Assembly (NCBI GenBank): GCA_030614245.1
Contig: JAUWKK010000002.1
Coordinates: 1-32,597, forward strand
From: Planctomycetota bacterium
Lineage (GTDB): Bacteria; Planctomycetota; PUPC01; JABMSA01; JAUWKK01
Direction: 5' to 3'
DNA length: 32,597 bases
Each line of letters starts with the position of its first letter. Within the stretch, counting starts at the first letter, position 1. The notes under the pieces are model-generated. The model was not told the DNA's origin, ran no database searches, and worked only from the letters and a program-made list of their open reading frames with translations. The translations under genes were made by a program, and so were the position numbers. Below, piece by piece: positions 4,451 to 29,184 of this stretch.

Positions 4451-4844
4451 GGCCGTCCCCCTTCGGAGCATCCGCATCATGTGGCACCATCGAGAGCCGC
4501 AGCGGGCCGGACGGGCTCCGATGCTCTTCCTGTAATCGCTTGAACTCGACCTGCGTCTCGGCCTCGACCTGAATCGCTTCGGTGCGTTGGCCGAGCTTCA
4601 TCGCCTCCCTCGCGTGCTCGTCCAGCCGGCATGCCAGGCCGAAAATAATATGCTGGAATTTCGCCCGCATCTGCCGCGTCCGCCGCTCCAGCACTATCCC
4701 TTTGGCCCGCGAGCGGAAGATGGCATTTTGCTGCTCCACGTCGAGCTGGTTGCTCGTATCGAGTAGATTCCGCTCATGCTGCTCGATGGAGGCCTGTGCT
4801 TCCGTCAATTGTTGCCGAAGTGTTTGCTTTTTCGCCACGATCAT
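4440..4844 (-). CDS. coiled-coil hypothetical protein (start may be GTG 4838)
   Basis: Heptad-rich Q/E/L sequence. AAGGAG SD. Confidence 0.65.
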   Translation of the reverse strand: MIVAKKQTLRQQLTEAQASIEQHERNLLDTSNQLDVEQQNAIFRSRAKGIVLERRTRQMRAKFQHIIFGLACRLDEHAREAMKLGQRTEAIQVEAETQVEFKRLQEEHRSPSGPLRLSMVPHDADAPKGDGHAD

Positions 4845-4940
4845 TCTCCTTCTGTTGTTCGATGCCAGGCGACGAGGCGGGCGCCCAGTACGGGCAAAAG
4901 TGATGTGGCATCCGCCTGCCGCCGGCTTTCCCCCGGAAAT

Positions 4941-5282
4941 CTATGCTTGCTGCTCCTCACTGGATGCCGACTGCAAACGCAATTCCATGTCCGCCAATGC
5001 CAAGTTGCTCTTGATCTCGTTGAGCGTCGTGGAACCAGCGTTCCTATGGCGGAGGATGTCGTTTTCGGATAGCCTCGCCAGCTCCTCCATGCTGCTGATG
5101 GCATGATGACTCAATACATTGCGGGCCCTGACGCTCCATCCGAACTCCGATACCGGCGTGAACCCGGATCGCTTTTCGTCGGGCGACTTCCCGAGATAAA
5201 CCGCGCGCCGCAGGCGTTCAATCTCCAAAGCCGCGGCGATAAGTAGCTGGGCCTCTTCACGCAGTTTTTTCACAATATCCAT
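4941..5282 (-). CDS. RNA polymerase alpha-subunit C-terminal domain-like protein
   Basis: PVSEFGWSVRARNVL...ISSMEELARLSENDILRHRNAGSTTLNEIKSNL aligns by eye to alpha-CTD PVDDLELTVRSANCL...[30 protein letters not shown]. Confidence 0.85.
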   Translation of the reverse strand: MDIVKKLREEAQLLIAAALEIERLRRAVYLGKSPDEKRSGFTPVSEFGWSVRARNVLSHHAISSMEELARLSENDILRHRNAGSTTLNEIKSNLALADMELRLQSASSEEQQA

Positions 5283-5301
5283 GATGCCCCTTTCAAGAAG
5301 C

Positions 5302-5422
5302 GCGGGGCCTGTCCGACGGCCTGGTCTTCGACCCCAGCCCGGGCGTCGAGCGCCTCTATCGGCCCAGGCCCCGCATTGCTCCGTGGAACGTTGTTAGTTC
5401 GATGATGCATCTCGACACCGCG
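5302..5422 (-). ncRNA. candidate structured cis-regulatory RNA, copy 1
   Basis: Ungapped 104/121 identity to 6621-6741, with compensatory changes in predicted stems. Intergenic, just upstream of an RBS. Confidence 0.6.
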
Positions 5423-6220
5423 TTATCGCACGCGTCGGGGTTTCAGTTTTTTCCGTGTGACTATCCGCCCCGTGCCGCCACAGTATTTACACTTCGCTTT
5501 CCGATACTTGCCGTCGTAATTACTTCTCGTTCCTCGCACGACCCCATCGCCGCCACAGCGAGGACAACGAATCTTTATCAGGCGAAATCTTGGCTTTGAT
5601 GTTTTCTGACTGAATGGCTTGGAGCCAATCGATTTGTTCCGGTGCGGCGCCTGCAGATCATCTGGAATCGTCTCCTCGAGGACGTCTGTATTTTCCGCTT
5701 CGTCTTTCCCGATAATTCTGCCCCGACGGTCTACGGCAAAGCGACAGATGAGTTTGAATTCATAAATCTCATACGTCCCGAACTTGGGGCCTTTGGGAGC
5801 AAACCGCCGAATGGCGGCTTTTGCTTTCCGGTAAGATGGAAAGAACATCAACCGATGACCAAGAGTGACCGGGGCTCGTCCAGGCGTTGAGAAGAAGAGT
5901 TGTTGACGTATTTCCGGTTTCTTCGCCGAGGCCGCAGCATCATTCATTGTCTGCAGCGCCCTGCCAGAGAGAGGCTGGAGGGTATCATCGCCATCACGGA
6001 TTGCCCCACACTCCGCTCCATCGACGTTGTAAAAGCGAAGGCCAAAGACAGATACAATCTTTTGGTCCCGTTCCTTAATCGCGGCACGTGGTACAGCCTG
6101 GCCGATTCGCTGGCCCGGGGCCGGTCGTTCCTGGGGCTGGTCGAGGTCGGGGGCCGCAGCTGCATCGCCGGCATCGGCGCCGGCGATGAGTCCCAGCAAG
6201 AACATAATAAACACATTCAT
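5423..6220 (-). CDS. putative exported protein with C-terminal DnaJ-type CxxCxGxG Zn finger
   Basis: Hydrophobic N-terminus (VFIMFLLGLIAGADA), CPRCGGDG and CKYCGGTG. AAGGAG SD. Confidence 0.7.
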   Translation of the reverse strand: MNVFIMFLLGLIAGADAGDAAAAPDLDQPQERPAPGQRIGQAVPRAAIKERDQKIVSVFGLRFYNVDGAECGAIRDGDDTLQPLSGRALQTMNDAAASAKKPEIRQQLFFSTPGRAPVTLGHRLMFFPSYRKAKAAIRRFAPKGPKFGTYEIYEFKLICRFAVDRRGRIIGKDEAENTDVLEETIPDDLQAPHRNKSIGSKPFSQKTSKPRFRLIKIRCPRCGGDGVVRGTRSNYDGKYRKAKCKYCGGTGRIVTRKKLKPRRVR

Positions 6221-6320
6221 TTCGTTCTCCTTTTTCGCCCCTCGATAAAGCCCCGTTCCCCCGGCGAGGGGTTTGATCGCTGACCCCGAGGCCAGCGAAC
6301 CGGGAAGGGCATTGCGTCAT

Positions 6321-6605
6321 TTACCGACTATCCTCCAGCGCCCGCACCGCGTTGTCGAGAGCCGGATCATTGTGGAATGCCCCCGAGCTCCCGCCCGTGC
6401 GGCCGGCGTTCTCGTCCAGAATCTGCTCGATGTTGTCGTGGATATCGCCGCCGAGCACCTCGTTCGCACAATCAGGACAATACGCCGTCGTCCCGACCAT
6501 CAGCATTGCCCTATCGCCGCACCCGCACCAGCGCGGCCGCGCCTGCTCGGACAGCATATATATCTCCCCGCGCCGCCCTGCCCGTCTTTTACGTCGTGGC
6601 CTCAA
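6321..6605 (-). CDS. small Zn-finger hypothetical protein
   Basis: AGGAGG SD plus TTG start. CGCG..CPDC. Confidence 0.6.
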   Translation of the reverse strand: MRPRRKRRAGRRGEIYMLSEQARPRWCGCGDRAMLMVGTTAYCPDCANEVLGGDIHDNIEQILDENAGRTGGSSGAFHNDPALDNAVRALEDSR

Positions 6606-6620
6606 CCCAACCTCCTATCT

Positions 6621-6741
6621 GCGGAGCTCATCCGACGGCCTGGCGTTCGGCCCCAGCCCGGGCGTCAAGCGCCTCTACCGGCACGAGCCCTGCATTGCTC
6701 CGTGGAGCGTTGTTAGTTCCATGATGCATCTCGACTCTGCG
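6621..6741 (-). ncRNA. candidate structured cis-regulatory RNA, copy 2
   Basis: Repeat of 5302-5422. Lies in the leader downstream of the promoter at 6862-6890 and just upstream of an AGGAGG SD. Confidence 0.6.
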
Positions 6742-6861
6742 CGACATGTCGTACGATTGTCGGGTGCGGGCGCACGCATCGATGTCACGCGGTATGAAGG
6801 CGTGTGCGTGCACCCGCTGGAGCTCTGCATTTGTAACTATCTCGCGTGACATCGTGCGGTC

Positions 6862-6890
6862 ACCTTATCTCGGTTGGTTCCGTCAATCAA
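6862..6890 (-). promoter_or_regulatory. sigma70-type promoter of early operon
   Basis: TTGATT-N17-TAAGGT with an upstream A-tract, next to palindrome TTTCGCC-N4-GGCGAAA (6897-6914). Confidence 0.55.
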
Positions 6891-6922
6891 GGGTTTTTTC
6901 GCCGAGGGGCGAAAGTTTTATA

Positions 6923-7204
6923 TTATCTCTCATGGTTGAGGAGCTTCTTGATATCGAGTAGGTGATTGGCGATGACGCCGAGTCCGCCGATTATGAATGC
7001 GATGCCAACACTTAAGATACCGCAGCCCAAGATGATACACCCCGGAATTGATCGAGTCGCCGCTTGAGTTCCTCGTAAAATCTCGCCGCGACTATGCCAA
7101 AAACTCTCATGCCTTATATCGTATCCGACCGGCGTTGCCATCATGAACCCGATGAAGACGAGAAAAGCGGCCAGCAGTCCCAGGCCGACCGCACCCACTA
7201 TCAT
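6923..7204 (-). CDS. two-TM membrane protein (possible superinfection exclusion/immunity)
   Basis: Two hydrophobic segments (MIVGAVGLGLLAAFLVFIGFMM; IILGCGILSVGIAFIIGGLGVIA), directly downstream of the HTH gene. Function is inferred. Confidence 0.6.
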   Translation of the reverse strand: MIVGAVGLGLLAAFLVFIGFMMATPVGYDIRHESFWHSRGEILRGTQAATRSIPGCIILGCGILSVGIAFIIGGLGVIANHLLDIKKLLNHER

Positions 7205-7263
7205 ATCAGACCCGCGTTGTCGCTTCTTCTCGGTTCCCGGTATCGGTCCTTTGTGTCCCATCA

Positions 7264-7611
7264 TCAAACTCCTTGCTTGTTGGTTGGAACGAGCGAGCGC
7301 GCCACTTGCATCGAGGCCCACGGGATCGGCCGCTCGCCCCGCTCATACCTGGCGATGTTGTTGCCCGTTGTGTGCAGCAGCTCCGCCAGGCGGGCCTGAG
7401 TGAGGCCGAGCCGCTTGCGGATGGTCCGCAGCTCTACACCCGAGGCCCAGCGGCGGTCGACGGTGCGCACAGATGCGTCTATGCCGATCATCGCATAGCT
7501 ATCCGGCTCGGCGAACCGCACGAGCGCGTAGACGTGAAGTCCGCCGCGTTCCTCATCGGCAGGGTGGCGGAGGAACTCGGCTATCAGTATGGCGTTCTGT
7601 GGTAGATTCAT
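7264..7611 (-). CDS. XRE-family helix-turn-helix transcriptional regulator
   Basis: LRTIRKRLGLTQARLAELLHTTGNNIARYERGERPIP. Confidence 0.9.
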   Translation of the reverse strand: MNLPQNAILIAEFLRHPADEERGGLHVYALVRFAEPDSYAMIGIDASVRTVDRRWASGVELRTIRKRLGLTQARLAELLHTTGNNIARYERGERPIPWASMQVARSLVPTNKQGV

Positions 7612-7913
7612 TGTCTGCCTCCTCGCCGTACGAATTCATCGATCACCGGATCGTAATCGCCGCCGCGGGGATTGTCCGGCAGCATCTCGTCGGCGAGGCT
7701 GCGCAGGGCGCGGCGCGTCCTCGGGCCATTGTGTATGCCCGCGGCATCGGCCAGCATATCAAGGATGTTGCATTCGCACCGATCGGCCTCATACTCGACG
7801 CCGATGTCAGTGATCTCGCCATCCACAAGCACAACCGGCAACCCGTAGCTGCTCGTTGCGTGCTCGTTGGTGATGATTACTTGTCGGCCATCGATCATTA
7901 GTTTCGCATTCAT
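7608..7913 (-). CDS. phage hypothetical protein
   Basis: GAGGAG SD, TNEHATSSYGLPVVLVDG motif, ATGA overlap with the HTH gene. Confidence 0.7.
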   Translation of the reverse strand: MNAKLMIDGRQVIITNEHATSSYGLPVVLVDGEITDIGVEYEADRCECNILDMLADAAGIHNGPRTRRALRSLADEMLPDNPRGGDYDPVIDEFVRRGGRQ

Positions 7914-7960
7914 TTCGCTCCTCCTCGTCCGTGGGGGGCCTGGCGGCGACCCGGGTGGCG

Positions 7961-8368
7961 TTAGTCTCTCATTGCCGCCTCGTGGCAGTATGCGTGCCAC
8001 TCGGCCTCCATATCACCGATCACTTGGATGTAATCCTCACCGGCATCAAGCCGGGCAAGTGCCTTGCGGCCTGCAGCGCCCTTGACATAGTTGGCCGCAT
8101 CGCTGTAGCCGCGAGCATCCGAGCGTGCTGCGATAGCGGGATAGGTTTCTCGCCATTCGGCCAGCCGCCGTGCTGCATTGTCGCGAGCGCGGCGGCTCTC
8201 ATCCGGGTCAGTATCCGCAAGTGCCTCAGCACGGTCCCGCAGCCGTCCGATAATCTCCATGTCCCGCTCGTGGGCGAGGCGGTCATCGCCGTGGGCGGCT
8301 CGCTCGGCGTCGACCTTCTGCTGCGCTGCCCTCAGTTTCCGGTTGATGTCTTTGCCCCATCTCATCAT
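7961..8368 (-). CDS. hypothetical protein, first gene after strong promoter
   Basis: AAAGGAG SD before ATG 8368. Confidence 0.65.
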   Translation of the reverse strand: MMRWGKDINRKLRAAQQKVDAERAAHGDDRLAHERDMEIIGRLRDRAEALADTDPDESRRARDNAARRLAEWRETYPAIAARSDARGYSDAANYVKGAAGRKALARLDAGEDYIQVIGDMEAEWHAYCHEAAMRD

Positions 8369-8425
8369 CTCGCTCCTTTGTCCCGTGTTTGCCTTTGTTT
8401 CGTGCATGTCTCTCATTCCACCCAT

Positions 8426-8454
8426 ATTATACCACGGGCATAGGCCGAAGTCAA
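8426..8454 (-). promoter_or_regulatory. near-consensus sigma70 promoter with extended -10 and A/T-rich UP-like tract
   Basis: TTGACT-N17-TATAAT, TGG preceding -10, TTTTTTATTTTT upstream. Confidence 0.85.
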
Positions 8455-8557
8455 AGGAAAAATAAAAAACTTTCGCCCTTTTTTCGAAGTTTTTTTCGGC
8501 CCGGGATGCCCTGGATACCATATGTTGTATTCCAATTCCGCATGGCTACAAGAGCAG

Positions 8558-8592
8558 AAAAAAAGCCCGGGGCCGCTGGTGCAACCTCGGGC
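8558..8592 (-). terminator. intrinsic terminator ending the late operon
   Basis: GCCCGAGGTTGC-ACCA-GCGGCCCCGGGC followed by T7. Confidence 0.8.
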
Positions 8593-8668
8593 TGGGTGCG
8601 GGGATATAGGACCCGGCCATTGGGCCGGCCCTCACGGCATGGAGCCGAATTTAATCCCCATCAAATGC

Positions 8669-9163
8669 TCATGCTGTGCCGTTGCCGGCTTTGAGCTCCT
8701 TGATTTTGCCGTTCTTGCGGATATTGTCGGTGAACGTGCCCAGGCCGGCTCCGGCGCTCAATAACAGGAGCGCGGAGGTGACGAGGCCGCCGGGGTCGAT
8801 AGTGCCGGCCGCTGCGTCGGCGAGGGCGCCGCCGACGAACTTGACTATCGAGCCGCGAAACTCGTCCTGCCTGTCGAGGTGCGATCTGCCGGCCTCGATA
8901 TCCGCGTTCGCTGCTGCGATCTCGGTATTGAGCGTATCAATCTGGGCCTGCAACGCCACATTGCGGGCCGCGAAGCTCTGCTCGACGGATATGACCTGCC
9001 GCTCGAAGGCGGGCCGCGTGACGGCTTCCTGGGCGATGAGTCCCGTCGTCCTGGCCTGGCAGCCGACGAGCCAGGCGGTGGCGGCCAGGGCTAGCACCAG
9101 GCCGATCGCTAGATATCGGTTATAATCGATCCATTTCAATGCTCCGTGCAACACATCATTCAT
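8669..9163 (-). CDS. membrane lipoprotein, candidate unimolecular spanin/lysis protein
   Basis: Hydrophobic helix ending in lipobox LVGC, central coiled coil, C-terminal hydrophobic helix plus basic tail. Last gene of the late operon. Confidence 0.6.
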   Translation of the reverse strand: MNDVLHGALKWIDYNRYLAIGLVLALAATAWLVGCQARTTGLIAQEAVTRPAFERQVISVEQSFAARNVALQAQIDTLNTEIAAANADIEAGRSHLDRQDEFRGSIVKFVGGALADAAAGTIDPGGLVTSALLLLSAGAGLGTFTDNIRKNGKIKELKAGNGTA

Positions 9164-9356
9164 CAGCGTCTCCTCCTATTGGCCCCGGTGATTCTCGTAT
9201 TCGGCGGAGCGCTTCGGCGGGACCTATTCCGAGCACTCTGCATAACTCGACGAAACGCGGAGAATCTGCCAGCCGCCGAGCCTCGACTATGTCGCCGGCA
9301 GCGAGCGCCCTCTGGATTCTCCGCGTAATCTCTTCGGCTGCCTCTTGGTCGAACAT
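9156..9356 (-). CDS. hypothetical protein
   Basis: Fills the gap between GT and lipoprotein genes. Overlaps the GT 3' end by 70 nt. Confidence 0.45.
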   Translation of the reverse strand: MFDQEAAEEITRRIQRALAAGDIVEARRLADSPRFVELCRVLGIGPAEALRRIRESPGPIGGDADE

Positions 9357-9919
9357 TTTATCGGCGGCCCCCGCCAGCCGTCCCGGAATTCGTGGATTAT
9401 GTGTCCCCCGGCGGGCGCGAGATGCAGCGTCTCCGGGATGTTATGTTGGATAGCCCGCAACATCTTGGCTCCGTATCTCGCTATCCGGTGGTCGCCCGTC
9501 ATCTGTCCCGGCAATATGGCGTTGATCGTTTTCCAGGCCCCGCACTCGGGCGTCGCCGCCATGCACCACACGTCGGGATATTTCGTTCTGCCCCCCTGGA
9601 CGAGTAGCTCGGTGGTAATCGGATGCAACTCAGCCAACTTTGTGAGACAGAAAGGAAATTTCGGCCGCGTATCGCAGTGAAGCATCCAGCCTGCTGGAGC
9701 CTGCCGGAGGATGCTGTATTGGAGGAGTTCCGCCTGGTCCCCGATGCAGCCGGCGGCGTCGAACATCTCAAAGTATTCGGGCAGCAGCATAGACGCATCC
9801 CGGTGCAGGGAGATATCCCAGCCGAGGTGCGCCAGACGCCACCGTGCGATGTTGTCAGCGGCCCAGATCGGTATCTTCTCGCCGAGCCAGACGAAGTGGA
9901 TGTGTTTGGGGATTCCCAT
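9287..9919 (-). CDS. GT32/OCH1-like glycosyltransferase (DXD sugar-binding family), degenerate motifs
   Basis: IPKHIHFVWLG..IP......IARW...H.GW is the GT32 N-terminal signature. AELLQYSIL and GWMLHCD occupy the SDxxRY and GGIYxDxD positions. Confidence 0.7.
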   Translation of the reverse strand: MGIPKHIHFVWLGEKIPIWAADNIARWRLAHLGWDISLHRDASMLLPEYFEMFDAAGCIGDQAELLQYSILRQAPAGWMLHCDTRPKFPFCLTKLAELHPITTELLVQGGRTKYPDVWCMAATPECGAWKTINAILPGQMTGDHRIARYGAKMLRAIQHNIPETLHLAPAGGHIIHEFRDGWRGPPIKCSTKRQPKRLRGESRGRSLPAT

Positions 9920-12636
9920 CAGTTGACCCTCTGGATGAAGCCGAGCACCATGAACGGCATAGGATCGTCATAACCGGCACTGATAATATCGAGGTCGCCG
10001 CCGCTGCCGACGTCGTTATCATAATCAGGAAGGGTTTCGGTCGTGTCGTGTGCGACGACGAGTTTGCCATCCATGTTGATCGTACCCGTGCCGTCGCAGA
10101 CGTGCCAGCCGTCGGGTACTTCGTCGGGCGTGCCGTAAGTGTGGATAGCCCACATCTTGATCGTGCCGATCTTATCGTCGCCGAAATCATCGAGCGTCAC
10201 CAAGCGTCCGGTCTTGGATACGGTATATGGGACAACCATGCCGACGCGGATGTTCGGATCCTCGCTCGTGGGATGGTAGCAATAGACGGAGAATGCGTCA
10301 CCCGTTACGTCGCCGCCGTCCTCGCCGCAGAACTTGATCTTGACCTCGGCGATGCCGGCGACTTCGGTCTCCTTCCAGGCGACTTCCGCGTGCTCGTCGG
10401 CATAATGCTGACCCTTGCCGAATTGGATGCTCGATGCCGTAACCCCCGGCCACCGCACCGGCAGCATGCCGACGTGGCGGCGGAGTTCGACGAGATCGTT
10501 CTGCATCCCATGGACGGTGCGCGCGACTGCCCGCAGGTTGCTCATCCCGGGCACATCGGCCATCCGCACGGCATCGAGCTCCCAAAAGCTTGTCTGGTAA
10601 CTGCTCCGGCCATGCACGAAATCCCAGCTGATCGCGCTGATGGGCGTGCCGACGGTGGTGTGATTGGTTTCGTCGCCGATGGCCGTAACGATGGTGCCGA
10701 GGCGGAATCCGGGGCGCAGGTTGTTCAGTTGTATCTCGATGGCCGTGCGCTCCTGGCGATACCATTCCATTGCGAGCGCGGCGATCAACCGCAGCCGCGG
10801 GCCGTCGTCGCGGAGCGTGTTGTAGCCGCCGGCCCAGAACTCGCGGGCGCCCTCGGAGATACTGATGGTTGTCATTAGCGGGATATACCAGAGCTCGGCA
10901 TCGGGCACGTTCAATGTCAGGGTCCGGGGCCGCGCCAGTTCAGCAAAGTTCGGCACGCTCCGGATCACCTTCAGCCGCTCGTCGGTCTCGGCGAATACTG
11001 TTGCAATCATCTCCTTCCAGTCGAACGCCGGCTGAACTTTCGACGGCCCATCCACGGTGGGATCGAAGCTGTTGAGGCCCAGTACATGGCCGATGGCGGA
11101 CACGACCGAGAACGCCATCTCGCCATCGAGCATGCGCACGCGGGCCGGCGGCTTCTCGATGGCCTTGAGGCCCTCGACCTGATAATACTTGCCATCATCG
11201 GGGTTCACGACGATCACCAGGGGCATGAGAGCTTCCGGCTCCGTGTCGGCAGCACCCGGCCTCATCATAATGGGCAATGCGCGCAGCAGCGCCCTGTTTG
11301 CGTTCCAGTACTTGGCCGTGGTCTGGGAATCGACCCTGCCATCGTCTTTGACAGCCGGATGTGCTATGTAATAGTTGCTTTTGCCGCGACCGTTCCGCAC
11401 CATCCACCCAAAATCGCGGGGGATGCGGTAGACTTGATACACTCGAGACCTGGCATCCTCCTGGCGGAAGGCGTCATTCAGATCGGGATCGGTCCCCAGG
11501 GCGGCATTGTAATCGTTCTCCTCGGTGGCCGTCCAGCCGGCCTCGAGCGTCCCATCCGCGAATGAAACACTAAAACACGACTTGACCCTGGCCCCCTGAA
11601 CGACGATGCGGTCATACCGCGCGGAAGTGCTGTGCTTGATCAGAGCACGTTTCGTGTCCAGATGGTCGAACGATGGCGCCGCGTTTTGCCTGTTGCCCCG
11701 CATCGTCGTGCCGTCTACTGTGATGTCCTTCTCGAAGATGCCGAAAATGTGCAGCGTCACCTTGCCGGGTGTCGCCAATAGCGTGTCACCGTTCATGTCG
11801 CCGGGGGCATCGACGTACCAGCCGATGCCGCGATGCCGGGCGATCAGATGGTTGACGGCCTGCAAGACCGTAAAGCCCTCGAGCTTATGCAAGGTCACAA
11901 TATTATGGAGTAGCGCCGGCTGGCCGGCAATCTCGAATTTCAGGTCGTCCTCCGCCTCGCCCCATTGCTCCATGTGATAGTGCAGGAGGTACTCGAGGAT
12001 GTCCTCGTTGGTCCAGACGGCACCGCCCTCGGAGAACACGTGTGTACCGGCTTCCGTCGGGCTGGTCGATCGATTGCCGGATAAGCCCATGCCGTAACGC
12101 CGGCGCTCGTTGAAGATCGGCAGGTGCGCGATCTTATCCACCTCACTCGTTTTTGCGTTCCAAATGTGCCCGCCGCGTATGGTCACCAGGTCCAGCAGAT
12201 GCTCGAGGCCGTAGGCTATTATCGTCTGCCTGCCGGAGCGCACGGGCTCCTCGTCCAATGCCTCCGGATCATCGAAACTGCTATCGACGTCATACACGCG
12301 GTCCGTGATCACCCCCGTCCAGACCACGCTCGTACCGCGATCGTTCACGAGCACGATCTGAATGAACTGATCTTTGAGGTCGAGCGGCGGTTGGACTTTG
12401 AATGCAGGCGCGTCCTCACGGGTGTTCTCCCCGTACTCATACTGGAAGGCCGCCCGCGATACGCTTGGCCCGACGGATGATCGCGCCGATAAGGGCGTGA
12501 GATACGGCACAGCCTTCCACTTCGCATCCTTGTCGCTCCCGCCCCACAGCTTCTTGGTGCGGACGATGAATGAGTCGGTACCGTGTATTTCCGGCGCTGC
12601 CCCGTCCGGGATGATGTTGGGTTGCACTCTGGCCAT
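9919..12636 (-). CDS. large tail tip/hub protein with C-terminal tail-collar-like domain
   Basis: 905 aa at the end of the tail module. C-terminal IGTIKMWA...VPDGWHVCDG...PFMVLGFIQR collar-like motif. Confidence 0.75.
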   Translation of the reverse strand: MARVQPNIIPDGAAPEIHGTDSFIVRTKKLWGGSDKDAKWKAVPYLTPLSARSSVGPSVSRAAFQYEYGENTREDAPAFKVQPPLDLKDQFIQIVLVNDRGTSVVWTGVITDRVYDVDSSFDDPEALDEEPVRSGRQTIIAYGLEHLLDLVTIRGGHIWNAKTSEVDKIAHLPIFNERRRYGMGLSGNRSTSPTEAGTHVFSEGGAVWTNEDILEYLLHYHMEQWGEAEDDLKFEIAGQPALLHNIVTLHKLEGFTVLQAVNHLIARHRGIGWYVDAPGDMNGDTLLATPGKVTLHIFGIFEKDITVDGTTMRGNRQNAAPSFDHLDTKRALIKHSTSARYDRIVVQGARVKSCFSVSFADGTLEAGWTATEENDYNAALGTDPDLNDAFRQEDARSRVYQVYRIPRDFGWMVRNGRGKSNYYIAHPAVKDDGRVDSQTTAKYWNANRALLRALPIMMRPGAADTEPEALMPLVIVVNPDDGKYYQVEGLKAIEKPPARVRMLDGEMAFSVVSAIGHVLGLNSFDPTVDGPSKVQPAFDWKEMIATVFAETDERLKVIRSVPNFAELARPRTLTLNVPDAELWYIPLMTTISISEGAREFWAGGYNTLRDDGPRLRLIAALAMEWYRQERTAIEIQLNNLRPGFRLGTIVTAIGDETNHTTVGTPISAISWDFVHGRSSYQTSFWELDAVRMADVPGMSNLRAVARTVHGMQNDLVELRRHVGMLPVRWPGVTASSIQFGKGQHYADEHAEVAWKETEVAGIAEVKIKFCGEDGGDVTGDAFSVYCYHPTSEDPNIRVGMVVPYTVSKTGRLVTLDDFGDDKIGTIKMWAIHTYGTPDEVPDGWHVCDGTGTINMDGKLVVAHDTTETLPDYDNDVGSGGDLDIISAGYDDPMPFMVLGFIQRVN

Positions 12637-12646
12637 CTTTTGAGTC

Positions 12647-12802
12647 CTCAGACTTCAGACTTCAGGCTTCAGGTACGGATTTCGGTCGGTCTTTCTTACC
12701 CTGCAGCCTGTAGCCTGCAGCCTGTAGCCTTCTTCTCATGGATTTCGGTCGGTCTTTCTTACCCTGCAGCCTGTAGCCTGCAGCCTGTAGCCTTCTTCTC
12801 AT
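12647..12802. repeat. perfect 63-bp tandem duplication with heptamer arrays
   Basis: 12677-12739 = 12740-12802. Each copy holds (CTGYAGC)x4, with adjacent (YTCAGRY)x4 at 12647-12674. Confidence 0.95.
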
Positions 12803-15496: not shown

Positions 15497-15708
15497 GAAA
15501 TTAACCCCCAAAAGAAGGAAGCAATGGATTTCAGCAGCCGCCTTCTGGCCTTGAGCTCCGCGACGTCGATCCGGATCAGCGTGATTTCTTTACCTTGCTC
15601 GACGAGTACCACATCGTGCTTTTCCTGACCTCTTTCGAGGCGCTCGAGCGATTTCTCCACATGAAGGCGATGCTCGGACCAGCCGTCGCCATCGTCGTGT
15701 TGTTCCAT
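15493..15708 (-). CDS. small coiled-coil protein with C-terminal hydrophobic end (XhlA/holin-like)
   Basis: TAATG coupling. Coiled coil followed by IASFFWGLIS. Confidence 0.5.
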   Translation of the reverse strand: MEQHDDGDGWSEHRLHVEKSLERLERGQEKHDVVLVEQGKEITLIRIDVAELKARRRLLKSIASFFWGLIS

Positions 15709-19285: not shown

Positions 19286-19770
19286 CGGATTACCCTCGTT
19301 TCTCGTTTTCGTGCATGATTCATTCGCCTGGTCAGTTCCCTATGCACCCACTTGGCCATCTTATCGATCTCGGTCTGCGACACCGCGACAACCTCATCCG
19401 CTTTGATAATGGGCGTTATATGCTGGGTTTTCGGATACTTCCACAAATAGTGGGGCGGCTTCATCTTGAGTCGCATGCCCCGCCTCGTCGTCGTAATGAC
19501 GTAGGCGCCGGTCAGTGCTCGCATCAGCCGGCCGGTGTAGACCAGCGGTCGATTATGTCCGAGCTTCTTCCGCTTCGCCTTGCTGTATTTCAGCGTGCGC
19601 CGGTGGTAGCCATATTCCCTGGCCCCCCGTGCTGTAAAGTGCTTCGGCAAGGTACCGCGGTGCCATAGCCGCCCCAGCTTTGTCAACGCCGGCGGCACGC
19701 CCTGCTTGAACGCCTTGAGCGTGGTGCCCGGGCTCCGGGTGTACTCGATGCGGCCTGTCATCCCGCCCAT
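19282..19770 (-). CDS. neck/tail completion protein (virion morphogenesis family)
   Basis: Basic protein with PLVYTGRL motif, synteny. Confidence 0.65.
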   Translation of the reverse strand: MGGMTGRIEYTRSPGTTLKAFKQGVPPALTKLGRLWHRGTLPKHFTARGAREYGYHRRTLKYSKAKRKKLGHNRPLVYTGRLMRALTGAYVITTTRRGMRLKMKPPHYLWKYPKTQHITPIIKADEVVAVSQTEIDKMAKWVHRELTRRMNHARKRETRVIR

Positions 19771-20710: not shown

Positions 20711-21682
20711 CTAGTTGTCGACCCTCACTAGGTGCCCCATGTACTTGTCGATGATTTTCTCATCGGTGTACATGTCGGCCTGGGTGATGTTCGACTTGGT
20801 CTGATTCTCGTAATACTGGGCCATCTCCACGAGATTCTTGACCATCTGCTTCCAGTAGATGATCCGACCGATGCAGGGCTCGAGAGGATTGCTGGTGACG
20901 GCGACCTTGGCGACCATCACGTAGTCGTCGCCCCAAATCTCGCCGCCGGTGAAATCCTGACCATCACTCGCGGTGTTGTAGACCGCCTGGCCCTCGATAA
21001 CCCGGTCGATGCCCAGCACTTGCGCGAGGTTATCGAGCTTCAGCTTCCGTGTAACGATCGCGCTCGCGGCAAACTTCGCCTGGATGGCCGTGTTGGTGTT
21101 GATCATCCTGTCGATGTTCGTGGTGTTGCAGATGAGCGCGTTGGGCATTACCCCAGTGACCATCAGCACTTTGAGCATGGCTGCCCGGATGTGACCGATG
21201 ATGTCCGAGGCGGCCGCGTCCCACGGCTTGTTGCCGTCGGCCGCGCTCCAGTCCGTGAACAGGGCGGCGCCCGACCACGTGCTGATGTTCATCACGGCAA
21301 GTGACACGCGGTACTCCAGCGAGCGGATCAAATCCGCAAACGCCTGCTCCGCGGCGACCATGTCCGCGTTGAACACGGTATCGTAGTTCTTCAAGTGCTC
21401 GACGGGCATCGGTATCTCCTGACCGTACCCCTCGCACTTGTAGGTCTGACTGTCGGCCGCGATATCGCGCCTCGGGTAAGTCGTCCCCGGAGCCCGCGTC
21501 AGCTGACGCAAACGAGTCATCGCCTCGCGCGTAAGCATCGTTATCGTGCCTTGCTGTTTCGGCAGCCCGATCGGTCCCAGCACCTGACTGGCGATCATCT
21601 TCTGGCCCTGGAGGTCAAACTCCCTGAACGCGCCGGCCAATTCCGGCTTCGGCCTCGAGGCCACATCTCCATGCTGGATCAT
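20711..21682 (-). CDS. major capsid protein (lambda gpE-like)
   Basis: 323 aa with IA..V.....PKQQG, RAPG, E.RV...VM, W.....DII..I, G..PNAL motifs. Synteny. Confidence 0.85.
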   Translation of the reverse strand: MIQHGDVASRPKPELAGAFREFDLQGQKMIASQVLGPIGLPKQQGTITMLTREAMTRLRQLTRAPGTTYPRRDIAADSQTYKCEGYGQEIPMPVEHLKNYDTVFNADMVAAEQAFADLIRSLEYRVSLAVMNISTWSGAALFTDWSAADGNKPWDAAASDIIGHIRAAMLKVLMVTGVMPNALICNTTNIDRMINTNTAIQAKFAASAIVTRKLKLDNLAQVLGIDRVIEGQAVYNTASDGQDFTGGEIWGDDYVMVAKVAVTSNPLEPCIGRIIYWKQMVKNLVEMAQYYENQTKSNITQADMYTDEKIIDKYMGHLVRVDN

Positions 21683-22777: not shown

Positions 22778-23998
22778 CTATGCGCCGTCGAGGGTCGGCC
22801 TCTTCGCGATCTCCACCTTGTACGCCTCGGCGTACGCGTCCTGATAGCGGATGCCCGGCTCCGCCCTGACCCGCGCTTCCGCGACCTTCTCCGCGGCGGC
22901 TATAGCCGCCTCTTTCGTCACCGCATCGGGCTCGGGCACGTGCTGCACGCCATCGGAACCAGCCAGCAGTTCTTTCCTGATCCCGGCGTTCTCCTCGGTG
23001 AGCCTCGCCACCTCTACTGTCTGGACCTTCAGGGCCTCGGCTCCTGCGGTTTTGACCCTGGCCAGTTCTGCCTGCAGCTTGTCGCAGTATGCCGCCTTGG
23101 CCTCCATGACGCTCAGATCGCCGATCGCCGAAGCCAGCGCGAAGTCGGCATCCTCCGGAAACGCCTGCTGCATCGCGACCAATATCTCCTTCAAGCTCTT
23201 CTTGTCAGCCATGTCCTCATCTCCTGAAAAAGCCGTGGGGGTGTCCCCCGAAATCGTCAATCCGTTTCTGATCAAGAACTCCGTTATAAACTTTCGCACC
23301 CGCTGCGGCTTCAGACCGCCGAATATATCGGCCGGCGGTTCGGCGTCCCGCAGCCCGAATACGTATCGGCAGGCGAGCTCGCCCAACGCCGTCAATTCTT
23401 GGGGTTGGCTCAAGAATCCTCCTGGATTCGCCGCCGGATCGTCCACAACATCAGTCGATGCCAGACTATCCAAGCGTGCGTGCATCAGGTCATCCTCATT
23501 CGCCTCGTCCGGACTCACGAAATCACCATCGTCATCCTCGTTCTCTTCGGCGAATTCCTTCTCGGCATCCGGGTCGTGGTAAAAGACGATGCTGGCGCCG
23601 AACATATCCGGCTCTTTATCGGCCATGCGCAATATGTACGAGCCGAGCTTGCCGTCGGGCGATTCGTCCGCCAACTCTGAGACATGGAGATCCGCCCGGA
23701 CGATATTCCCATCCAGACGATAATCCTTCGCCCGCCCGAGGAACTTGCCCAGGCCGTCGTTGCAAAGCCCCGGGTGCGTGAACCGCACCTTAACCCCCAG
23801 CTTCTTGGCATTGCCTCCCTCGACCACCTGTGCCAGGAAGGCGCGGTCAATCCAGAAGTCATGGCCCAGGGCCTCGCCCTCGGTTATCACCGCGAAGTCG
23901 CGGATGAGCTGCCGGTCAGCGTCCACCCGCGCATCCTTCATGCTCCCGGCAAAACTAAGGCGTTCCCGGTTCGGTCTACTTATCGTCGCTGTCGTCAT
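22778..23998 (-). CDS. prohead protease/scaffold
   Basis: AVITEGEALGH, KVRFTHP, FGASIVF, DVVDDPAANPGG and a C-terminal coiled coil. Located between portal and capsid. Confidence 0.75.
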   Translation of the reverse strand: MTTATISRPNRERLSFAGSMKDARVDADRQLIRDFAVITEGEALGHDFWIDRAFLAQVVEGGNAKKLGVKVRFTHPGLCNDGLGKFLGRAKDYRLDGNIVRADLHVSELADESPDGKLGSYILRMADKEPDMFGASIVFYHDPDAEKEFAEENEDDDGDFVSPDEANEDDLMHARLDSLASTDVVDDPAANPGGFLSQPQELTALGELACRYVFGLRDAEPPADIFGGLKPQRVRKFITEFLIRNGLTISGDTPTAFSGDEDMADKKSLKEILVAMQQAFPEDADFALASAIGDLSVMEAKAAYCDKLQAELARVKTAGAEALKVQTVEVARLTEENAGIRKELLAGSDGVQHVPEPDAVTKEAAIAAAEKVAEARVRAEPGIRYQDAYAEAYKVEIAKRPTLDGA

Positions 23999-25598
23999 CT
24001 TCTTTCCTCTCTTTGGGCGGCGTGCCTCCTGCTAGCACAGCCTGCAATGTCTTCCCCTGGTCTACGCCGGCCAGGAGGGGCCAGAGTTCTTTCGCCGTAG
24101 CAAGACCCGCAGCGCCTTCCTCGACCTCCTGCGCCCTCTGTATGGCATCGAGGATCTCTTGACCCCGCGTCTCCAGGAACTCTCCCCGGTCCTGCGAGAG
24201 CGCGCCCAATGCATCCGTCTGCGTCGCCAGACCGCGGTCCATCTTCTTCGCCCAGGCCGAGACCTCTTTATCCTCGTCCACCCACGGCCAACTTGGGACC
24301 ACCCATTTGTGCTCGAGGATGCTAGACCGCCATGCCAATTTGCCCTCGGCCACCCAGCGCGCGACCTGCCAGCGATAGAGCCGCGAATAGAAACTCCGGA
24401 TCAGCAGCTGCTGCCACGCCCGGAACACGATGAATGCCTGCAGCAGCACGGCGCGCGAGCTCGAGTAATTCAGTTTGCCCCAGTCCAGCAGGATCAACTC
24501 GAGGGGAAGGCCGACGGGGATGGCGAAAAGCCTGATGAACAGCTTGACCGCTCCCTCGAAGTTCTGAGCGGGCCGCGTCTGGCGGATGCCCTTGATTTCC
24601 TGGCCCTTATCGCCGAAGAACGCCGTCGCCATGCCGACATTCATCACCTTCATATCCAGGTCGGGTATCTTCGCGACCGTCCGGTCTTCCGAGCCCGTTA
24701 CCCTGACTGGTTCCCCGCCCTCGGATGTCGTGACCGACAAGGCCAGCCGCGACAGCACCTGCCATGAAATGGCCTCGCTCGTCAGGATATCCTCGAGACG
24801 GTGAGCGATGGCCATTGAGGATACGAGTACCGGCACCCCGCGCGTCTGCGAGGACCGCTTGACGCGATTCAGGATATAAATTGCGTGCTCCGCCTCGATC
24901 GTCGTGGTATCGGCGTGTTCCGGATAGCCCCGGCCGCTGTCCGCGCCCGTTATTTCGAAGCCGACGATCCTGCCCCGCTTATCGAGCCGCACGCCCTGCT
25001 CGACCCTGATGCCCCGATCGTCCTCGCCCGCGGGCATCCTATTCGATCCGATGCGCTCTGCCTCGACGTGCTGCATTTGACCGTCCGCCAATTTCAGCAG
25101 CAACGTATCGCCGACTACCATCAACTCGCGCAGAACGATCTCCTCCATCTTCTTCCCGGGGTGGATTTCCCGCGCCTCGGGATTTTTCCACCACTCGTGC
25201 CATAATTTCTCGATCTTATCGTTCACGCTCGGGATGCTGGATTGGGCCTGCAAGCTGAATCCCGTCGGCCCGAGGATGTAATCGCACGCGCGGTTGATCA
25301 CCGCCTCATACAACCAGTTGTTGCGGTCGAGCCCGCGCGAGGCATCCACGAGCAGACCCCGGTCGTAGCGCATGTGGCTGTCCGCACTGCCCCCCACCTC
25401 CCAGCTGCCGGTCGACCGCAGGTAATCCGTGGCCTTATAGCCGAGTGCCGTATATTTGCCCACAGGCTGAAATTCCAGCGTATCGTCGGATTGAGAGGCA
25501 GTCCGCTTTCCCGGTTGGACGCCATCATTCACCTCGGCGGCCCCGGACCGCCCTCGACCAAATAGGCGTTGGAATTGGTTGCGAGCGGATTCAGTCAC
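23976..25598 (-). CDS. portal protein, lambda family
   Basis: SR.LDRNN, QGVRLD..GR, QTRGVP, GLPLEL...D....NYSSSR, WPWVD..KE. Confidence 0.92.
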   Translation of the reverse strand: MTESARNQFQRLFGRGRSGAAEVNDGVQPGKRTASQSDDTLEFQPVGKYTALGYKATDYLRSTGSWEVGGSADSHMRYDRGLLVDASRGLDRNNWLYEAVINRACDYILGPTGFSLQAQSSIPSVNDKIEKLWHEWWKNPEAREIHPGKKMEEIVLRELMVVGDTLLLKLADGQMQHVEAERIGSNRMPAGEDDRGIRVEQGVRLDKRGRIVGFEITGADSGRGYPEHADTTTIEAEHAIYILNRVKRSSQTRGVPVLVSSMAIAHRLEDILTSEAISWQVLSRLALSVTTSEGGEPVRVTGSEDRTVAKIPDLDMKVMNVGMATAFFGDKGQEIKGIRQTRPAQNFEGAVKLFIRLFAIPVGLPLELILLDWGKLNYSSSRAVLLQAFIVFRAWQQLLIRSFYSRLYRWQVARWVAEGKLAWRSSILEHKWVVPSWPWVDEDKEVSAWAKKMDRGLATQTDALGALSQDRGEFLETRGQEILDAIQRAQEVEEGAAGLATAKELWPLLAGVDQGKTLQAVLAGGTPPKERKEDDDSDDK

Positions 25599-26036: not shown

Positions 26037-26112
26037 TGGAGGCGGGAGCTGGATTCGAACCAGCGACCTTCAGGTTATGGGCCTGACAAGCTACCTACTG
26101 CTCCATCCCGCC
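26037..26112 (-). tRNA. tRNA with CAT anticodon (Met-type), CCA encoded
   Basis: GGCGGGA/TCCCGCC acceptor, GAGC/GCTT D-stem, TCAGG-CCCATAA-CCTGA anticodon arm, GCTGG-TTCGAAT-CCAGC T-arm, 3' TCCA, 76 nt. Confidence 0.92.
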
Positions 26113-27093: not shown

Positions 27094-29184
27094 CTAGTAC
27101 TCCGTCGTTATGTCCTTGGGCACGATTACCCGCCCAGCCCGCCTGGCGAGACGCGATCCCCGCGGCCCGCCCGGTTCTACCCATCCCCTCGGCTGTTTGC
27201 TGGCCGCCGCGGAGGCAGCGGCCACCTGCAACTTTTCGGCCTCGACCTCGAGAACCGTCATCATGGCCCCGCCCAGAGAATAGCAGGCACAGTCCCAGAC
27301 GTGGTAGCTCCCCTTTTCCACCCATACCCGCTTTTCCCTGCCTTTCACCATCGTTACCTCGCGCTTCGCGCGCATGAAGTGTGCGAATATCCATCCCTGA
27401 TTGCCGGGGCCTTTGCCGCGACCAGACCTGTCGCTGTTCGCCGCGTCCCGGGGGAAGTAATGATAGCCCGGACTCCCGGCTTCCCGAAATAGGCGGAACA
27501 GCACCTCGTCCTTGATGCGATCCACATCGAAGAACCACAATATCGAGTTATCGGGTTGCCTTCGGGCCTGCACCATATCCGGCGCGCCATCGATGAGCTG
27601 CAGTTGTTTGCCCGATGCCTTCATCTTGTTGAGCTGGCCTTCGGAGCGCCCGACGAGAGCATGCACCGCCCCACCCTGTTCTTTGCACCAGGTTCGTACC
27701 GTGTGGCCGAGAATGCCCTCGTGCTTGTAGCCAGTGTCGATCCATATCGATACGCAGTTGTAGATCGCCATTTGGGCCCGCACGGCGTCCAGAGCACGTC
27801 GCACGTCAGCTTTGGTCGGATCGCGCTCCAGACCCTCAGGGATGATCTCTTGCACGCCATAGTGCAACGTCCGGCGTGTCAGTGCCGCGTTGTAGCCATC
27901 GATGAGCCAGTATAGATTGATCTTCTGCACGTCGACCGCTCCCACGCAGAAATCCACGCCCTCGGGCAGGTCGCCCCCATCACCCAAGGGATCGAACCGG
28001 TAATCCGCAGCGTGTCTGGCGAGCAGGGCGTATGTAAGCGGCACTCCCTGCACATCGTCTTTCCACGGGATCGCCCAAGTGAACTGGCAGAGGGCTTTCT
28101 CTGCCGAGGTGCCCTCGGTTCTCTCGCCCGCCCATTCTTCTTCGGCGATGTCCGCCATCTTGCGCATCGTGCTATGCAGGGCATTCCAGCGGAAGCCGAA
28201 GGTACGCGTGGGCGGCGACGGGCCCACCACCTCGCCGTCGGGTTCCACGTGTTGGCCCCGGTGGACGATGCGAGGGTTGACTAAGGCGTTGCGCCGATCC
28301 AACTCACACCACACCGTGCCGCAATCAGCGCAGGCGTATGCACCACTAGCACGCGCCGCGAATTCATTTTCGGCATCCTCCCAGCCCCCGAACTGCTCCC
28401 GTTCGGGGCATTGCCAGGTACCGCAATGCGGGCATGCTACCATCACACGAGAATCCGAGCCGTTCTTGATCTCGGTATACACCCGACCCTTCTCTATGGA
28501 CATGGTACATTCGCCATAGAACACGGCGTCCTCGCTGAACGAGGCGGATCGGGCTTCAAATTGCTTGACCGGATCGGTCTCGCGAGAGACCGCGCCCGGC
28601 TGATCCATCTTATCCAGCTCCGTAGCTAATATGACCCGGGCCGTGTAGGAGGATCGCTGGGCATCGCTGCCGCCCGCGCCCATGAACCGCACCCTCGCGT
28701 CGTTCAGCAGCAGCAGCGATTTCGCCTTGCCGCCCCGACTGCCCGTCCCCGTCTCGGGCAGCAGATGCTTGTATCGGGTCATTTCCAGCGCCGGCAGTAT
28801 CCGCTCGATCCACACGGACTGCGCCAGCTCGATCACCGGCGCGCAGATTATGATATCCTCGGCCACCTCGAAGAGGTGATACGCGGCCGGGATCACGAGA
28901 AAGATGAAGGTCTTGCCGCCCTGCACTGGCCCGCTGCCGATGAACCGGCGAAAGACCCCGCCGTCCATAATCTGCAGCACCTGGCGCGTCCAGGGCATAA
29001 ATGACGTCTTGAACCGCAGGCCCCGCCTCGGCCCGGTGGGCAGGATCATCTCGGTCTCGGCGAACTCCAGGCGCGAACGCAACTTCCGCGGGCTGATGGC
29101 CCTGTAGAACGCCGTGATCGGCGCCAGCCAGTCCATCGCGGCACCTTGTTTAGCGGCCTTAGATAGTTGCGTCCGCTTCACCAT
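27094..29184 (-). CDS. terminase large subunit, lambda GpA family
   Basis: Walker A GPVQGGKT, Walker B VILATELD, CPHCG/CADCG Zn site, nuclease motifs GAVDVQ, IDTGY, HVWDC. Confidence 0.93.
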   Translation of the reverse strand: MVKRTQLSKAAKQGAAMDWLAPITAFYRAISPRKLRSRLEFAETEMILPTGPRRGLRFKTSFMPWTRQVLQIMDGGVFRRFIGSGPVQGGKTFIFLVIPAAYHLFEVAEDIIICAPVIELAQSVWIERILPALEMTRYKHLLPETGTGSRGGKAKSLLLLNDARVRFMGAGGSDAQRSSYTARVILATELDKMDQPGAVSRETDPVKQFEARSASFSEDAVFYGECTMSIEKGRVYTEIKNGSDSRVMVACPHCGTWQCPEREQFGGWEDAENEFAARASGAYACADCGTVWCELDRRNALVNPRIVHRGQHVEPDGEVVGPSPPTRTFGFRWNALHSTMRKMADIAEEEWAGERTEGTSAEKALCQFTWAIPWKDDVQGVPLTYALLARHAADYRFDPLGDGGDLPEGVDFCVGAVDVQKINLYWLIDGYNAALTRRTLHYGVQEIIPEGLERDPTKADVRRALDAVRAQMAIYNCVSIWIDTGYKHEGILGHTVRTWCKEQGGAVHALVGRSEGQLNKMKASGKQLQLIDGAPDMVQARRQPDNSILWFFDVDRIKDEVLFRLFREAGSPGYHYFPRDAANSDRSGRGKGPGNQGWIFAHFMRAKREVTMVKGREKRVWVEKGSYHVWDCACYSLGGAMMTVLEVEAEKLQVAAASAAASKQPRGWVEPGGPRGSRLARRAGRVIVPKDITTEY

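Follow-up and report, generated by a model that had tools for sequence, protein, structure and literature searches.

Two copies of a 121-nt sequence lie among minus-strand genes in a 32,597-nt stretch of Planctomycetota DNA (GenBank contig JAUWKK010000002.1, hereafter the window), which is a complete 32.6-kb contig within a 2.85-Mb genome bin and appears to be of phage origin. The question raised by this locus is what the repeat does. An original prediction, made from the sequence and its reading frames, had taken it for a candidate cis-regulatory phage RNA with covarying stems, had proposed an antitermination element, a processing site or a protein-binding translational switch, and had named a duplicated coding fragment as the alternative. 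In the current study the element is interpreted as a regulatory hairpin located between phage cistrons, for which the 94-aa product of the adjacent open reading frame (ORF), ORF94, is a candidate partner. Central to this interpretation is a third copy, found beside a homologue of ORF94 in an otherwise unrelated phage. The features of the window on which the argument turns are as follows (alpha-CTD, C-terminal domain of the RNA polymerase alpha subunit).

nt 5302–5422, minus strand: copy 1 of the repeat, after the stop of the 265-aa ORF and before the alpha-CTD gene; 152.8 bits with the covariance model R1
nt 6621–6741, minus strand: copy 2 of the repeat, directly upstream of ORF94; 148.8 bits with R1
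nt 5302–5374, minus strand: core of copy 1, with outer stem 5365–5374/5302–5311, inner stem 5358–5362/5313–5317, arm P2 at 5342–5354 and arm P3 at 5318–5339
nt 6621–6693, minus strand: core of copy 2, with helices as in copy 1, one A-C mismatch in the outer stem and P2 at 6661–6673
nt 5402–5412 (copy 1) and 6721–6731 (copy 2), minus strand: 11-nt motif AGAUGCAUCAU, identical in all three copies
nt 5378–5389 (copy 1) and 6697–6708 (copy 2), minus strand: mini-hairpin (GUUC-CACG-GAGC in copy 1), found in the window copies only
nt 6321–6605, minus strand: ORF94, 94 aa, with start codon TTG at 6605 and AGGAGG at 6611–6616
nt 4941–5282, minus strand: alpha-CTD gene, 113 aa, the next cistron after copy 1, with AAGGGG at 5287–5292 and ATG at 5282
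nt 5423–6220, minus strand: 265-aa ORF between the copies, with C-terminal CxxCxGxG zinc-finger motifs and a 3' end that overlaps a relic of an ORF94-type gene

The ungapped match between the two window copies was reproduced, with 104/121 positions identical and the 17 differences divided into 13 transitions and 4 transversions. The unit is sharply bounded, since the 200 nt on each side cannot be aligned and are no more alike than shuffled sequence (local scores of 17 and 17, against shuffle means of 16.3±2.2 and 16.9±2.3), and at its 3' end it stops with the final base of the outer stem. A Shine-Dalgarno-like run was seen shortly after each copy, as had been described. Copy 2 is separated by 4 nt from the AGGAGG that precedes the TTG of ORF94, and copy 1 is followed by the AAGGGG and ATG of the alpha-CTD gene, the identity of which was borne out by a match to PF03118 (E 9.4e-12).

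A search with R1 found the third copy at nt 10263–10352 of L087, in the same sense as the genes of its operon and as the sole match in that phage (29.9 bits, E 9e-7 in 20 kb). L087 (record G156) is a complete 59.9-kb IMG/VR phage genome with terminal repeats, and has a G+C content of 46% compared with about 60% in the window. Of the 41 window proteins three match this phage, and ORF94 is by far the strongest of them (E 2e-35, the others 5e-9 and 0.004). In L087, AGAUGCAUCAU encodes the last residues of the ORF94 homologue together with the first base of its stop codon, the helix starts 11 nt past that stop, and AAGGAG lies 16 nt beyond the helix, with ATG codons at 10381 and 10409. The genes that follow are recombination genes, encoding a PDDEXK-like nuclease and a DUF669 protein. 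In all three copies the hairpin is intercistronic, lies on the sense strand and ends 4–16 nt before a ribosome-binding site.

The third copy has its helices in the same order as copy 1 (10–11 bp, 5 bp, 4 bp, 4 bp and a triloop) and has no P2. Folded by itself, its 56-nt core reaches −40.6 kcal/mol (z −5.28), a value that none of 200 shuffles equalled, compared with −26.6 kcal/mol (z −1.91) for the antisense strand. Over 56 aligned core columns it is 73% identical to copy 1, and the 15 differences, 12 of them in stems, leave 23/23 pairs intact, five being changed on both sides; just 1 of 200000 random mutants of copy 1 equalled this retention. Relative to copy 2 there are 20 differences, with 21/23 pairs kept in both sequences and again five changed on both sides. 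Across the three sequences 97.6% of 85 cells are paired, a proportion reached in 0/500 shuffles, and slid partners give 27–45%. Eight pairs are changed on both sides, seven of them in the core and one in the mini-hairpin, where the third copy is merely force-aligned. The complete retention of pairs, together with the stronger fold of the sense strand in the third copy, argues for selection on sense-strand structure, as the original prediction had suggested for the minus strand of the window; on this comparison the secondary structure is very probably under purifying selection. The core has a G+C content of 77% amid surroundings of 48–49%, and its identity of 64–73% compares with 63% (177/282) for the ORF94 gene, the four-fold degenerate sites of which agree at 10/24 positions.

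What is common to all three copies is smaller than the 121-nt repeat. It includes the 11-nt motif, a CAAU that immediately precedes the helix, and both stems, outer and inner, with a bulge of two bases 5' and of one base 3'. The P3 arm with its internal loop, two U-G pairs (65/106 and 87/102) and a purine-AA loop are likewise common to all three. The conserved unit is an interrupted 23-bp hairpin (10 + 5 + 4 + 4) consisting of these two stems and a single arm. The third copy lacks the P2 arm (GGCG-CUYGA-CGCC), the mini-hairpin (GYUC-CACG-GAGC) and the AACUAACAAC run. The three-way junction that had been described is a property of the window copies only, because P2 is missing from the third copy, and so it is not retained as a part of the element; within the window it is recovered in the single-sequence fold of copy 1, while that of copy 2 shifts the register of the third helix. 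A resemblance of the mini-hairpin loop to a CsrA site had also been noted. Sites of this kind show GGA in the loop of a hairpin, are mostly accompanied by another at the Shine-Dalgarno, and are kept in homologues. A GGA does span the loop and stem of the mini-hairpin and CsrA is encoded in the bin (92 bits), but the idea is weakened because the mini-hairpin is missing from the third copy, and the Shine-Dalgarno of copy 1 has no GGA.

All of the minus-strand pairs listed for the window copies were found to be present: three changed on both sides (56/114, 57/113 and 92/98), four alternating between Watson-Crick and G-U (35/44, 53/117, 58/112 and 64/107), and one broken by an A-C in the outer stem (51/119), besides a C-C at the small loop (93/97). 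On the minus strand the core of copy 1 folds at −45.2 kcal/mol (z −2.76) and that of copy 2 at −36.1 kcal/mol (z −0.73). The minus-strand model keeps 30/30 pairs in copy 1 and 29/30 in copy 2. For its plus-strand mirror the figures are 27/30 and 25/30, and for a plus-strand fold of rod-like shape 28/28 and 24/28. When copy 1 was mutated at random with the observed number and type of changes, 521/20000 mutants kept at least 29/30 pairs, and a simulation conditioned on 11 stem changes gave 4264/100000; a column-shuffle control (67/500) is powerless with two rows. Taken alone, the two window copies thus give suggestive support for the structure (P about 0.03–0.04).

In the ORF94 protein an Arg-rich N-terminus is followed by a zinc ribbon (CxC...CxxC), and the C-terminal half is helical and well conserved. 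Its closest homologue is P0004, a protein of 94 aa encoded on L087 that is 59% identical over 99% of the length, and a basic N-terminus ahead of the zinc ribbon occurs in two of the three family members, including these two. A profile of ORF94 run against 1.84 billion representatives returned five proteins at E<=0.001, namely ORF94 itself, P0006 (81 aa, on a 656-nt contig) and three long proteins, of which two match over several stretches and the third, of 1477 aa and from a mollusc assembly, over no single one; in the genome collection the profile found no locus. Against Pfam, with E values up to 10, the three family members gave only DUF3797 (E 0.6–1.1) and TTC7_N (E 0.083), comparison with PDB sequences gave E values of at least 0.5, and the Atlas returned unnamed clusters only (0.90). 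The family known at present consists of three RNA copies and three proteins, and in both phages the hairpin adjoins a gene of this family.

Upstream of the ORF94 homologue, L087 carries at nt 7160–9964 (plus strand) a ThiF/E1-like gene (PF00899, E 7e-23) and a weak JAB-like gene (E 7.5e-4, below cut-off), preceded by a 72-aa ORF and a Cys-rich 350-aa ORF; the region may be a ubiquitin-like conjugation cassette.

The 5' end of the repeat bears on its origin. The first 29 nt of both window copies read R-C/S-R-D-A-S-S/W-N-stop, in a frame other than the one considered originally, and members of the ORF94 family end in ...RALEDAS-stop and ...RALEDSR-stop. These positions are thus no free leader and read as the end of an ORF94-type gene with its stop codon. 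Two further stretches of the minus strand are relevant here.

nt 5394–5499, minus strand: decayed relic of an ORF94-type gene's 3' end, frame-shifted and interrupted by in-frame stops; TAA at 5394–5396
nt 6221–6320, minus strand: spacer between ORF94 and the 265-aa ORF, corresponding to the position of the third copy; GCAAUGC at 6309–6315 and a branched fold

The relic reaches from the last part of the 265-aa ORF, which it overlaps, into copy 1, so that the similarity continues about 80 nt (28 residues) further upstream, collinear with the hairpin. Smith-Waterman scores are 48 against P0004 (null 25.9±4.2, reached in 1/500 shuffles) and 43 against ORF94 (null 26.9±4.3, 0/500); before copy 2 there is no comparable relic, as 442/500 and 199/500 shuffles score as high. 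Since the relic precedes copy 1 in the order still found in L087, the ancestral unit was, on this evidence, an ORF94-type gene followed by the hairpin, and the window copies are remnants of two further units, each a gene end plus hairpin, in which the gene has decayed and the hairpin has been kept. A degenerate third copy after the window's own ORF94 was considered and is not supported, as the spacer gives no R1 or R2 match and its fold is ordinary (z 0.0 to 0.16). The true C-terminus of the 265-aa ORF is uncertain because its 3' end overlaps the relic in another frame.

For a duplicated coding fragment, therefore, the evidence is favourable over the 5' end of the repeat (about 29 nt) and unfavourable over the remainder. 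There is no protein-level constraint on the repeat in any of the six frames (pN/pS 0.73, 1.42 and 0.86 in the minus frames, 0.73, 0.70 and 0.76 in the plus frames; range 0.70–1.42). The overlapping 'MHH' peptide named in the original prediction is not conserved, by this test and also because its frame runs into an unrelated peptide in the third copy. The codon score of that frame, trained on the long genes of the phage, is −0.05 (true frames 0.39±0.20, wrong frames −0.43±0.37), and every frame of the repeat is ambiguous by this measure. A 74-aa ORF (nt 6628–6852) and a 46-aa ORF (nt 5270–5410) span the copies in the same frame.

The explanation preferred here is that the unit would be a structured RNA module of a polycistronic early phage mRNA, in which AGAUGCAUCAU, a short spacer ending in CAAU, the 23-bp hairpin and the ribosome-binding site of the next gene follow one another. 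The hairpin would act in cis on the mRNA and set the expression of the next cistron, and the ORF94 protein would bind it, so that ORF94 would regulate its own expression through copy 2 and that of the alpha-CTD gene through copy 1. As a whole this explanation is put forward tentatively. The part that makes ORF94 the ligand of the hairpin is a possibility held with somewhat more reserve; it is favoured because one intact regulator gene, with several conserved hairpins placed ahead of other cistrons, is the arrangement typical of a protein with RNA operators. More doubtful again is a further step, by which ORF94 and the hairpin would constitute a new kind of portable two-part switch, unrelated in sequence to N-nut, Com-mom and put and moving as one between unrelated phages, whose Arg-rich, zinc-ribbon protein would turn translation or transcriptional read-through of chosen cistrons on or off. 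Of the mechanisms named originally, the processing site and the protein-binding translational switch remain the two best.

Several observations weigh against the explanation just given. The core of copy 2 is thermodynamically ordinary on either strand (z −0.73 minus, −0.83 plus), and copy 1 has its better fold on the plus strand (z −4.44, against −2.76 for the minus strand). Of the three compensatory pairs that distinguish the window copies, two are neighbours and could reflect a single event or templated correction of a DNA inverted repeat. The predicted exposure of the Shine-Dalgarno with and without the 5' arm is inconsistent between the copies, and the spacer 3' of the window's own ORF94 has no recognisable copy. 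Alignment A3, on which the three-sequence figures are based, was fitted to the model, its core being ungapped apart from one block, and three copies in two phages are too few for a test of the R-scape type or one that takes phylogeny into account. As to the protein, ORF94 matches no recognisable RNA-binding family, its AlphaFold model is of low confidence (pLDDT 62.8) and unsuited to a structure search, and a basic tail with a zinc ribbon is equally compatible with DNA binding; its link with the hairpin could be mere co-transfer of neighbouring DNA. No RNA run is among the sequencing runs listed for the stretch. Pairing of the 3' arm with the Shine-Dalgarno, as a switch, was considered and discarded, since the complementary runs after this arm in the three copies are of 5, 4 and 6 nt, runs of 4–5 nt are near chance, and the accessibilities are inconsistent.

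The main rival, which is compatible with ORF94 binding, is that the hairpin may be an RNase III-type site for processing or stability, independent of ORF94. By analogy, a cut by the host enzyme would detach the cistrons from one another, with a 3' hairpin left to protect the upstream one, and would free or activate the start region of the downstream one. The early mRNA of phage T7 has intercistronic RNase III sites, and the present element resembles them in occurring more than once per phage, on the sense strand and between cistrons, as an interrupted helix of about two turns before a ribosome-binding site. It differs in carrying a conserved single-stranded motif upstream, and in that the element and one particular gene are common to two phages of very different base composition. 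An idealised E. coli substrate has 22 bp, or two helical turns, and loops or bulges confine cutting to one strand and yield stabilising 3' ends, as set out in PMC3867540; the 23 conserved pairs of the hairpin, with their bulges and internal loops, agree with this rule, as does the placing of all three copies 4–16 nt before a ribosome-binding site with the substrate role. The enzyme is encoded in the bin that contains the phage contig (93 bits; closest relatives in Planctomycetota, <=54% identity). Sites for a host nuclease, however, need not persist between phages of 46% and about 60% G+C, and the conserved 11-nt motif and U-G pairs point to a more specific ligand. A nuclease site independent of ORF94 seems rather unlikely. 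Were the element such a site and nothing else, it would be more ordinary, and still the first of its kind to be described for these phages.

That the element acts on transcription, as a nut/put-like antitermination site or an attenuator, alone or with ORF94 as an N-like factor, is improbable. In phage lambda nutL precedes N in its leader, much as copy 2 precedes ORF94 with its Arg-rich N-terminus, and the neighbours of the repeat include genes related to RNA polymerase (alpha-CTD, and weak zinc-finger matches of the 265-aa ORF to Q-like proteins, E about 5e-4). The Arg-rich motif of N binds the boxB hairpin, according to PMC11480772. The only boxB-type candidate here, the mini-hairpin with its 4-bp stem and tetraloop, is missing from the third copy, and ORF94, unlike N, has a zinc ribbon and a conserved helical C-terminus and falls into no known family. 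The putL and putR sites of phage HK022, as presented in PMC9378689, are about 70 nt long, mutually similar and cis-acting, are known from covarying stems, form two side-by-side stem-loops in a V shape downstream of the two early promoters of divergent operons, and work protein-free. Two similar structured RNAs in the early region of one phage are a likeness to this arrangement, whereas the present element, set against that description, is one hairpin closed by a 10-bp stem, to which the window copies add an arm. R2 run over the HK022 genome with filters off gave a best match of 10.2 bits (E 0.54) at nt 15567–15679, in a tail gene and thus a structural one. Moreover, the two window copies share one transcription unit, and by the scan neither is close to a promoter. 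Within nt 4700–8700 the sigma-70 scan lists only 8454–8426 (minus strand, 11/12 matches), which is the sole strong site and is far from the copies, and 5961–5988 (plus strand); the promoter proposed at 6862–6890 was not among them.

Nor is there a convincing terminator after either window copy or the third copy. On the transcribed strand only two weak matches were found after the window copies, both inside coding regions, the cores (the third copy included) are not listed as intrinsic terminators on the sense strand, and the bases past the stems are not T-rich. With no terminator, an architecture unlike put and no match in HK022, the proposal of nut/put antitermination is not directly supported. 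A terminator or small RNA on the plus strand was also considered and set aside: the hairpin plus TTGTTAGTT at nt 6696–6709 is terminator-like, and its stem is of 4–5 bp and mismatched in copy 1. A separate terminator-like hairpin with a T-run, at nt 6896–6915 on the plus strand, lies opposite to all genes, between a 132-aa ORF and copy 2, and would end an antisense transcript crossing copy 2.

It is very unlikely that the feature acts at the level of DNA, as a single-stranded hairpin for priming or replication, a recombination 'boundary', or a promoter or operator with the palindromic GATGCATC. This 8-bp palindrome does lie within the invariant 11-nt motif, direct repeats flank a two-gene cassette, the L087 element precedes the PDDEXK-like nuclease and DUF669 genes, and DNA hairpins tolerate G-T pairs. 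The seven covarying pairs and four to six G-U pairs nonetheless favour the transcribed strand, the position relative to ribosome-binding sites is constant, the promoter scan finds no sigma-70-like site in the unit, and an 8-bp palindrome in 121 nt is by our estimate near chance expectation. The stretch is present in three sequencing runs of one study with identical sequence and no variants (at the level of contigs, one run being possibly the source), and in none of these three runs do the contigs show a joint linking the two copies across the cassette.

Least probable, by a little, is that the unit has no present function, as leftovers of a decaying gene end and a terminator-like hairpin, or that a small protein is encoded across the repeat: its 5' end is a gene relic and the 74-aa and 46-aa ORFs cover the copies with an ambiguous codon score (−0.05), but the pairing is kept beyond neutral expectation (1/200000 for the third copy, 521/20000 for the window copies), the flanks have diverged past alignment and the unit has not, pN/pS is close to 1 in all frames, the third copy does not conserve the peptide, and no U-run follows the stems.

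To our knowledge, hardly any work exists on the phages of Planctomycetota or of cold-seep communities, and the timing of their early genes has not been described. For a hairpin bound by ORF94, a close analogue in concept is the Com protein of phage Mu, which, according to PMC6483171, is small, carries a zinc finger and attaches to a hairpin next to the start region of the following gene, whose translation it activates; the target is a short hairpin beside a larger 'translation inhibition structure', with the motif CC(N)2-3GAG. The likeness, by analogy only and to Com as portrayed there, is that of a small zinc-binding phage protein encoded beside a structured RNA just 5' of the next start signals. 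The window mini-hairpin, CC-ACG-GAG, fits the published motif and may do so by chance, being absent from the third copy. The two systems differ in that ORF94 matches no Pfam Com family at E values up to 10, and in that the large helix of the present element has no Shine-Dalgarno inside it.

If ORF94 binds the hairpin, the pair would form a compact, self-contained post-transcriptional switch, similar in concept to N-nut or Com-mom and of independent origin, with a simplicity that would suit testing and perhaps reuse, and a phage-made RNA polymerase alpha-CTD protein would be under its control. The persistence of the module is also of note, as the gene ends of two extra copies have decayed where the RNA structure has been kept. 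What has been found is, in any case, a structured RNA as well conserved as the neighbouring protein gene, without an Rfam match and linked to a protein family of three members.

The element has no described relative in Rfam, GenBank phages, GTDB genomes, IMG/VR, JGI metagenomes or the protein libraries. The absence of a known class was confirmed by covariance search. With Rfam 15 at gathering thresholds only a tRNA (nt 26040–26112) was found in the whole window, and with E up to 10 there were three weak matches in nt 5000–7100, none on either copy. In the bin, BLAST gave 15 matches, of which only the two known copies were significant, and R1 gave the two copies and one 16.5-bit match; R1 and R2 over the window with filters off yielded nothing else above 14.4 bits. 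Among 150 related genomes, 26 had an R1 match at E<=1, the best of 26.4 bits, and the motif or helices are missing from the four best alignments shown. R2 matched one of the 150 at E<=0.01, with 26.2 bits over part of the inner junction and none of the outer stem, which was judged to be chance.

Exact patterns were scanned in IMG/VR (viral), JGI contigs (metagenome) and the GTDB collection (genome). Pattern 1 had no match in the viral and genome sets, pattern 2 none in the metagenome and viral sets, and pattern 4, the three-copy consensus, none in the genome collection. Pattern 3 occurred 13 times in the metagenome set, 14 times in the genome set and not at all in the viral set, and all 27 occurrences come from unrelated taxa and score no more than 17.9 bits with R1. 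Among GenBank phages nothing relevant was returned, either by blastn (copy 1, third copy) or by tblastn (P0004), and the literature examined on related systems describes known analogues only.

Relatives of the phage itself were of little help. The alpha-CTD, 265-aa and 905-aa tail proteins have no relatives among viral contigs. Five viral contigs carry a related terminase (34–51% identity); the genome-search route, which also missed the true match in G156, found the element in 0/5, and a direct search of the five (three whole records, two partial) gave nothing above 17.6 bits. None of the five has an alpha-CTD gene or shares the early genes of the window. G153, an IMG/VR phage related through its terminase, carries a family of hairpins of about 75 nt, each with a purine run and a pyrimidine run, around nt 19732, 20355, 21716, 22652 and 28396. 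These have folding energies of −47 to −57 kcal/mol, lie between structural genes, and are unrelated in sequence to the element studied here.

By its gene content, the contig in which the repeat is found is a tailed-phage genome or a piece of a prophage, with nearly all genes on the minus strand. A 905-aa tail protein is encoded, as are the following phage proteins.

nt 27094–29184: large terminase
nt 23976–25598: lambda-type portal
nt 20711–21682: major head protein

The early or regulatory region lies to the left of the tail genes and includes a helix-turn-helix protein (nt 7264–7611); both copies of the repeat are within this leftward operon. The 113-aa protein encoded after copy 1 is essentially the RNA polymerase alpha C-terminal domain alone, and a word-indexed protein search found no close relative; such a protein could act towards host transcription factors or UP elements as a decoy or an adaptor. 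No homologue of the 265-aa ORF was found among 5.8 billion proteins, and its family signals are weak and at the level of the zinc finger only, including the Q-like antiterminator PHROGs mentioned above.

A tRNA-Met gene (anticodon CAT; nt 26037–26112, minus strand) is located within the packaging and head region. Just upstream of the start region of the 905-aa tail gene there is a perfect 63-nt tandem duplication (nt 12677–12802; two copies, 100% identical). Near the left end of the contig, a 25-nt unit containing a perfect palindrome, GGTGACAAATTGTCACC, occurs twice, 45 nt apart (nt 238–262 and 283–307), and a separate exact 25-nt direct repeat is found at the extreme end (nt 1–25 and 32–56). 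These 25-nt repeats are near the ParB-like/methylase end of the contig and could be operator-like or partition-site-like.

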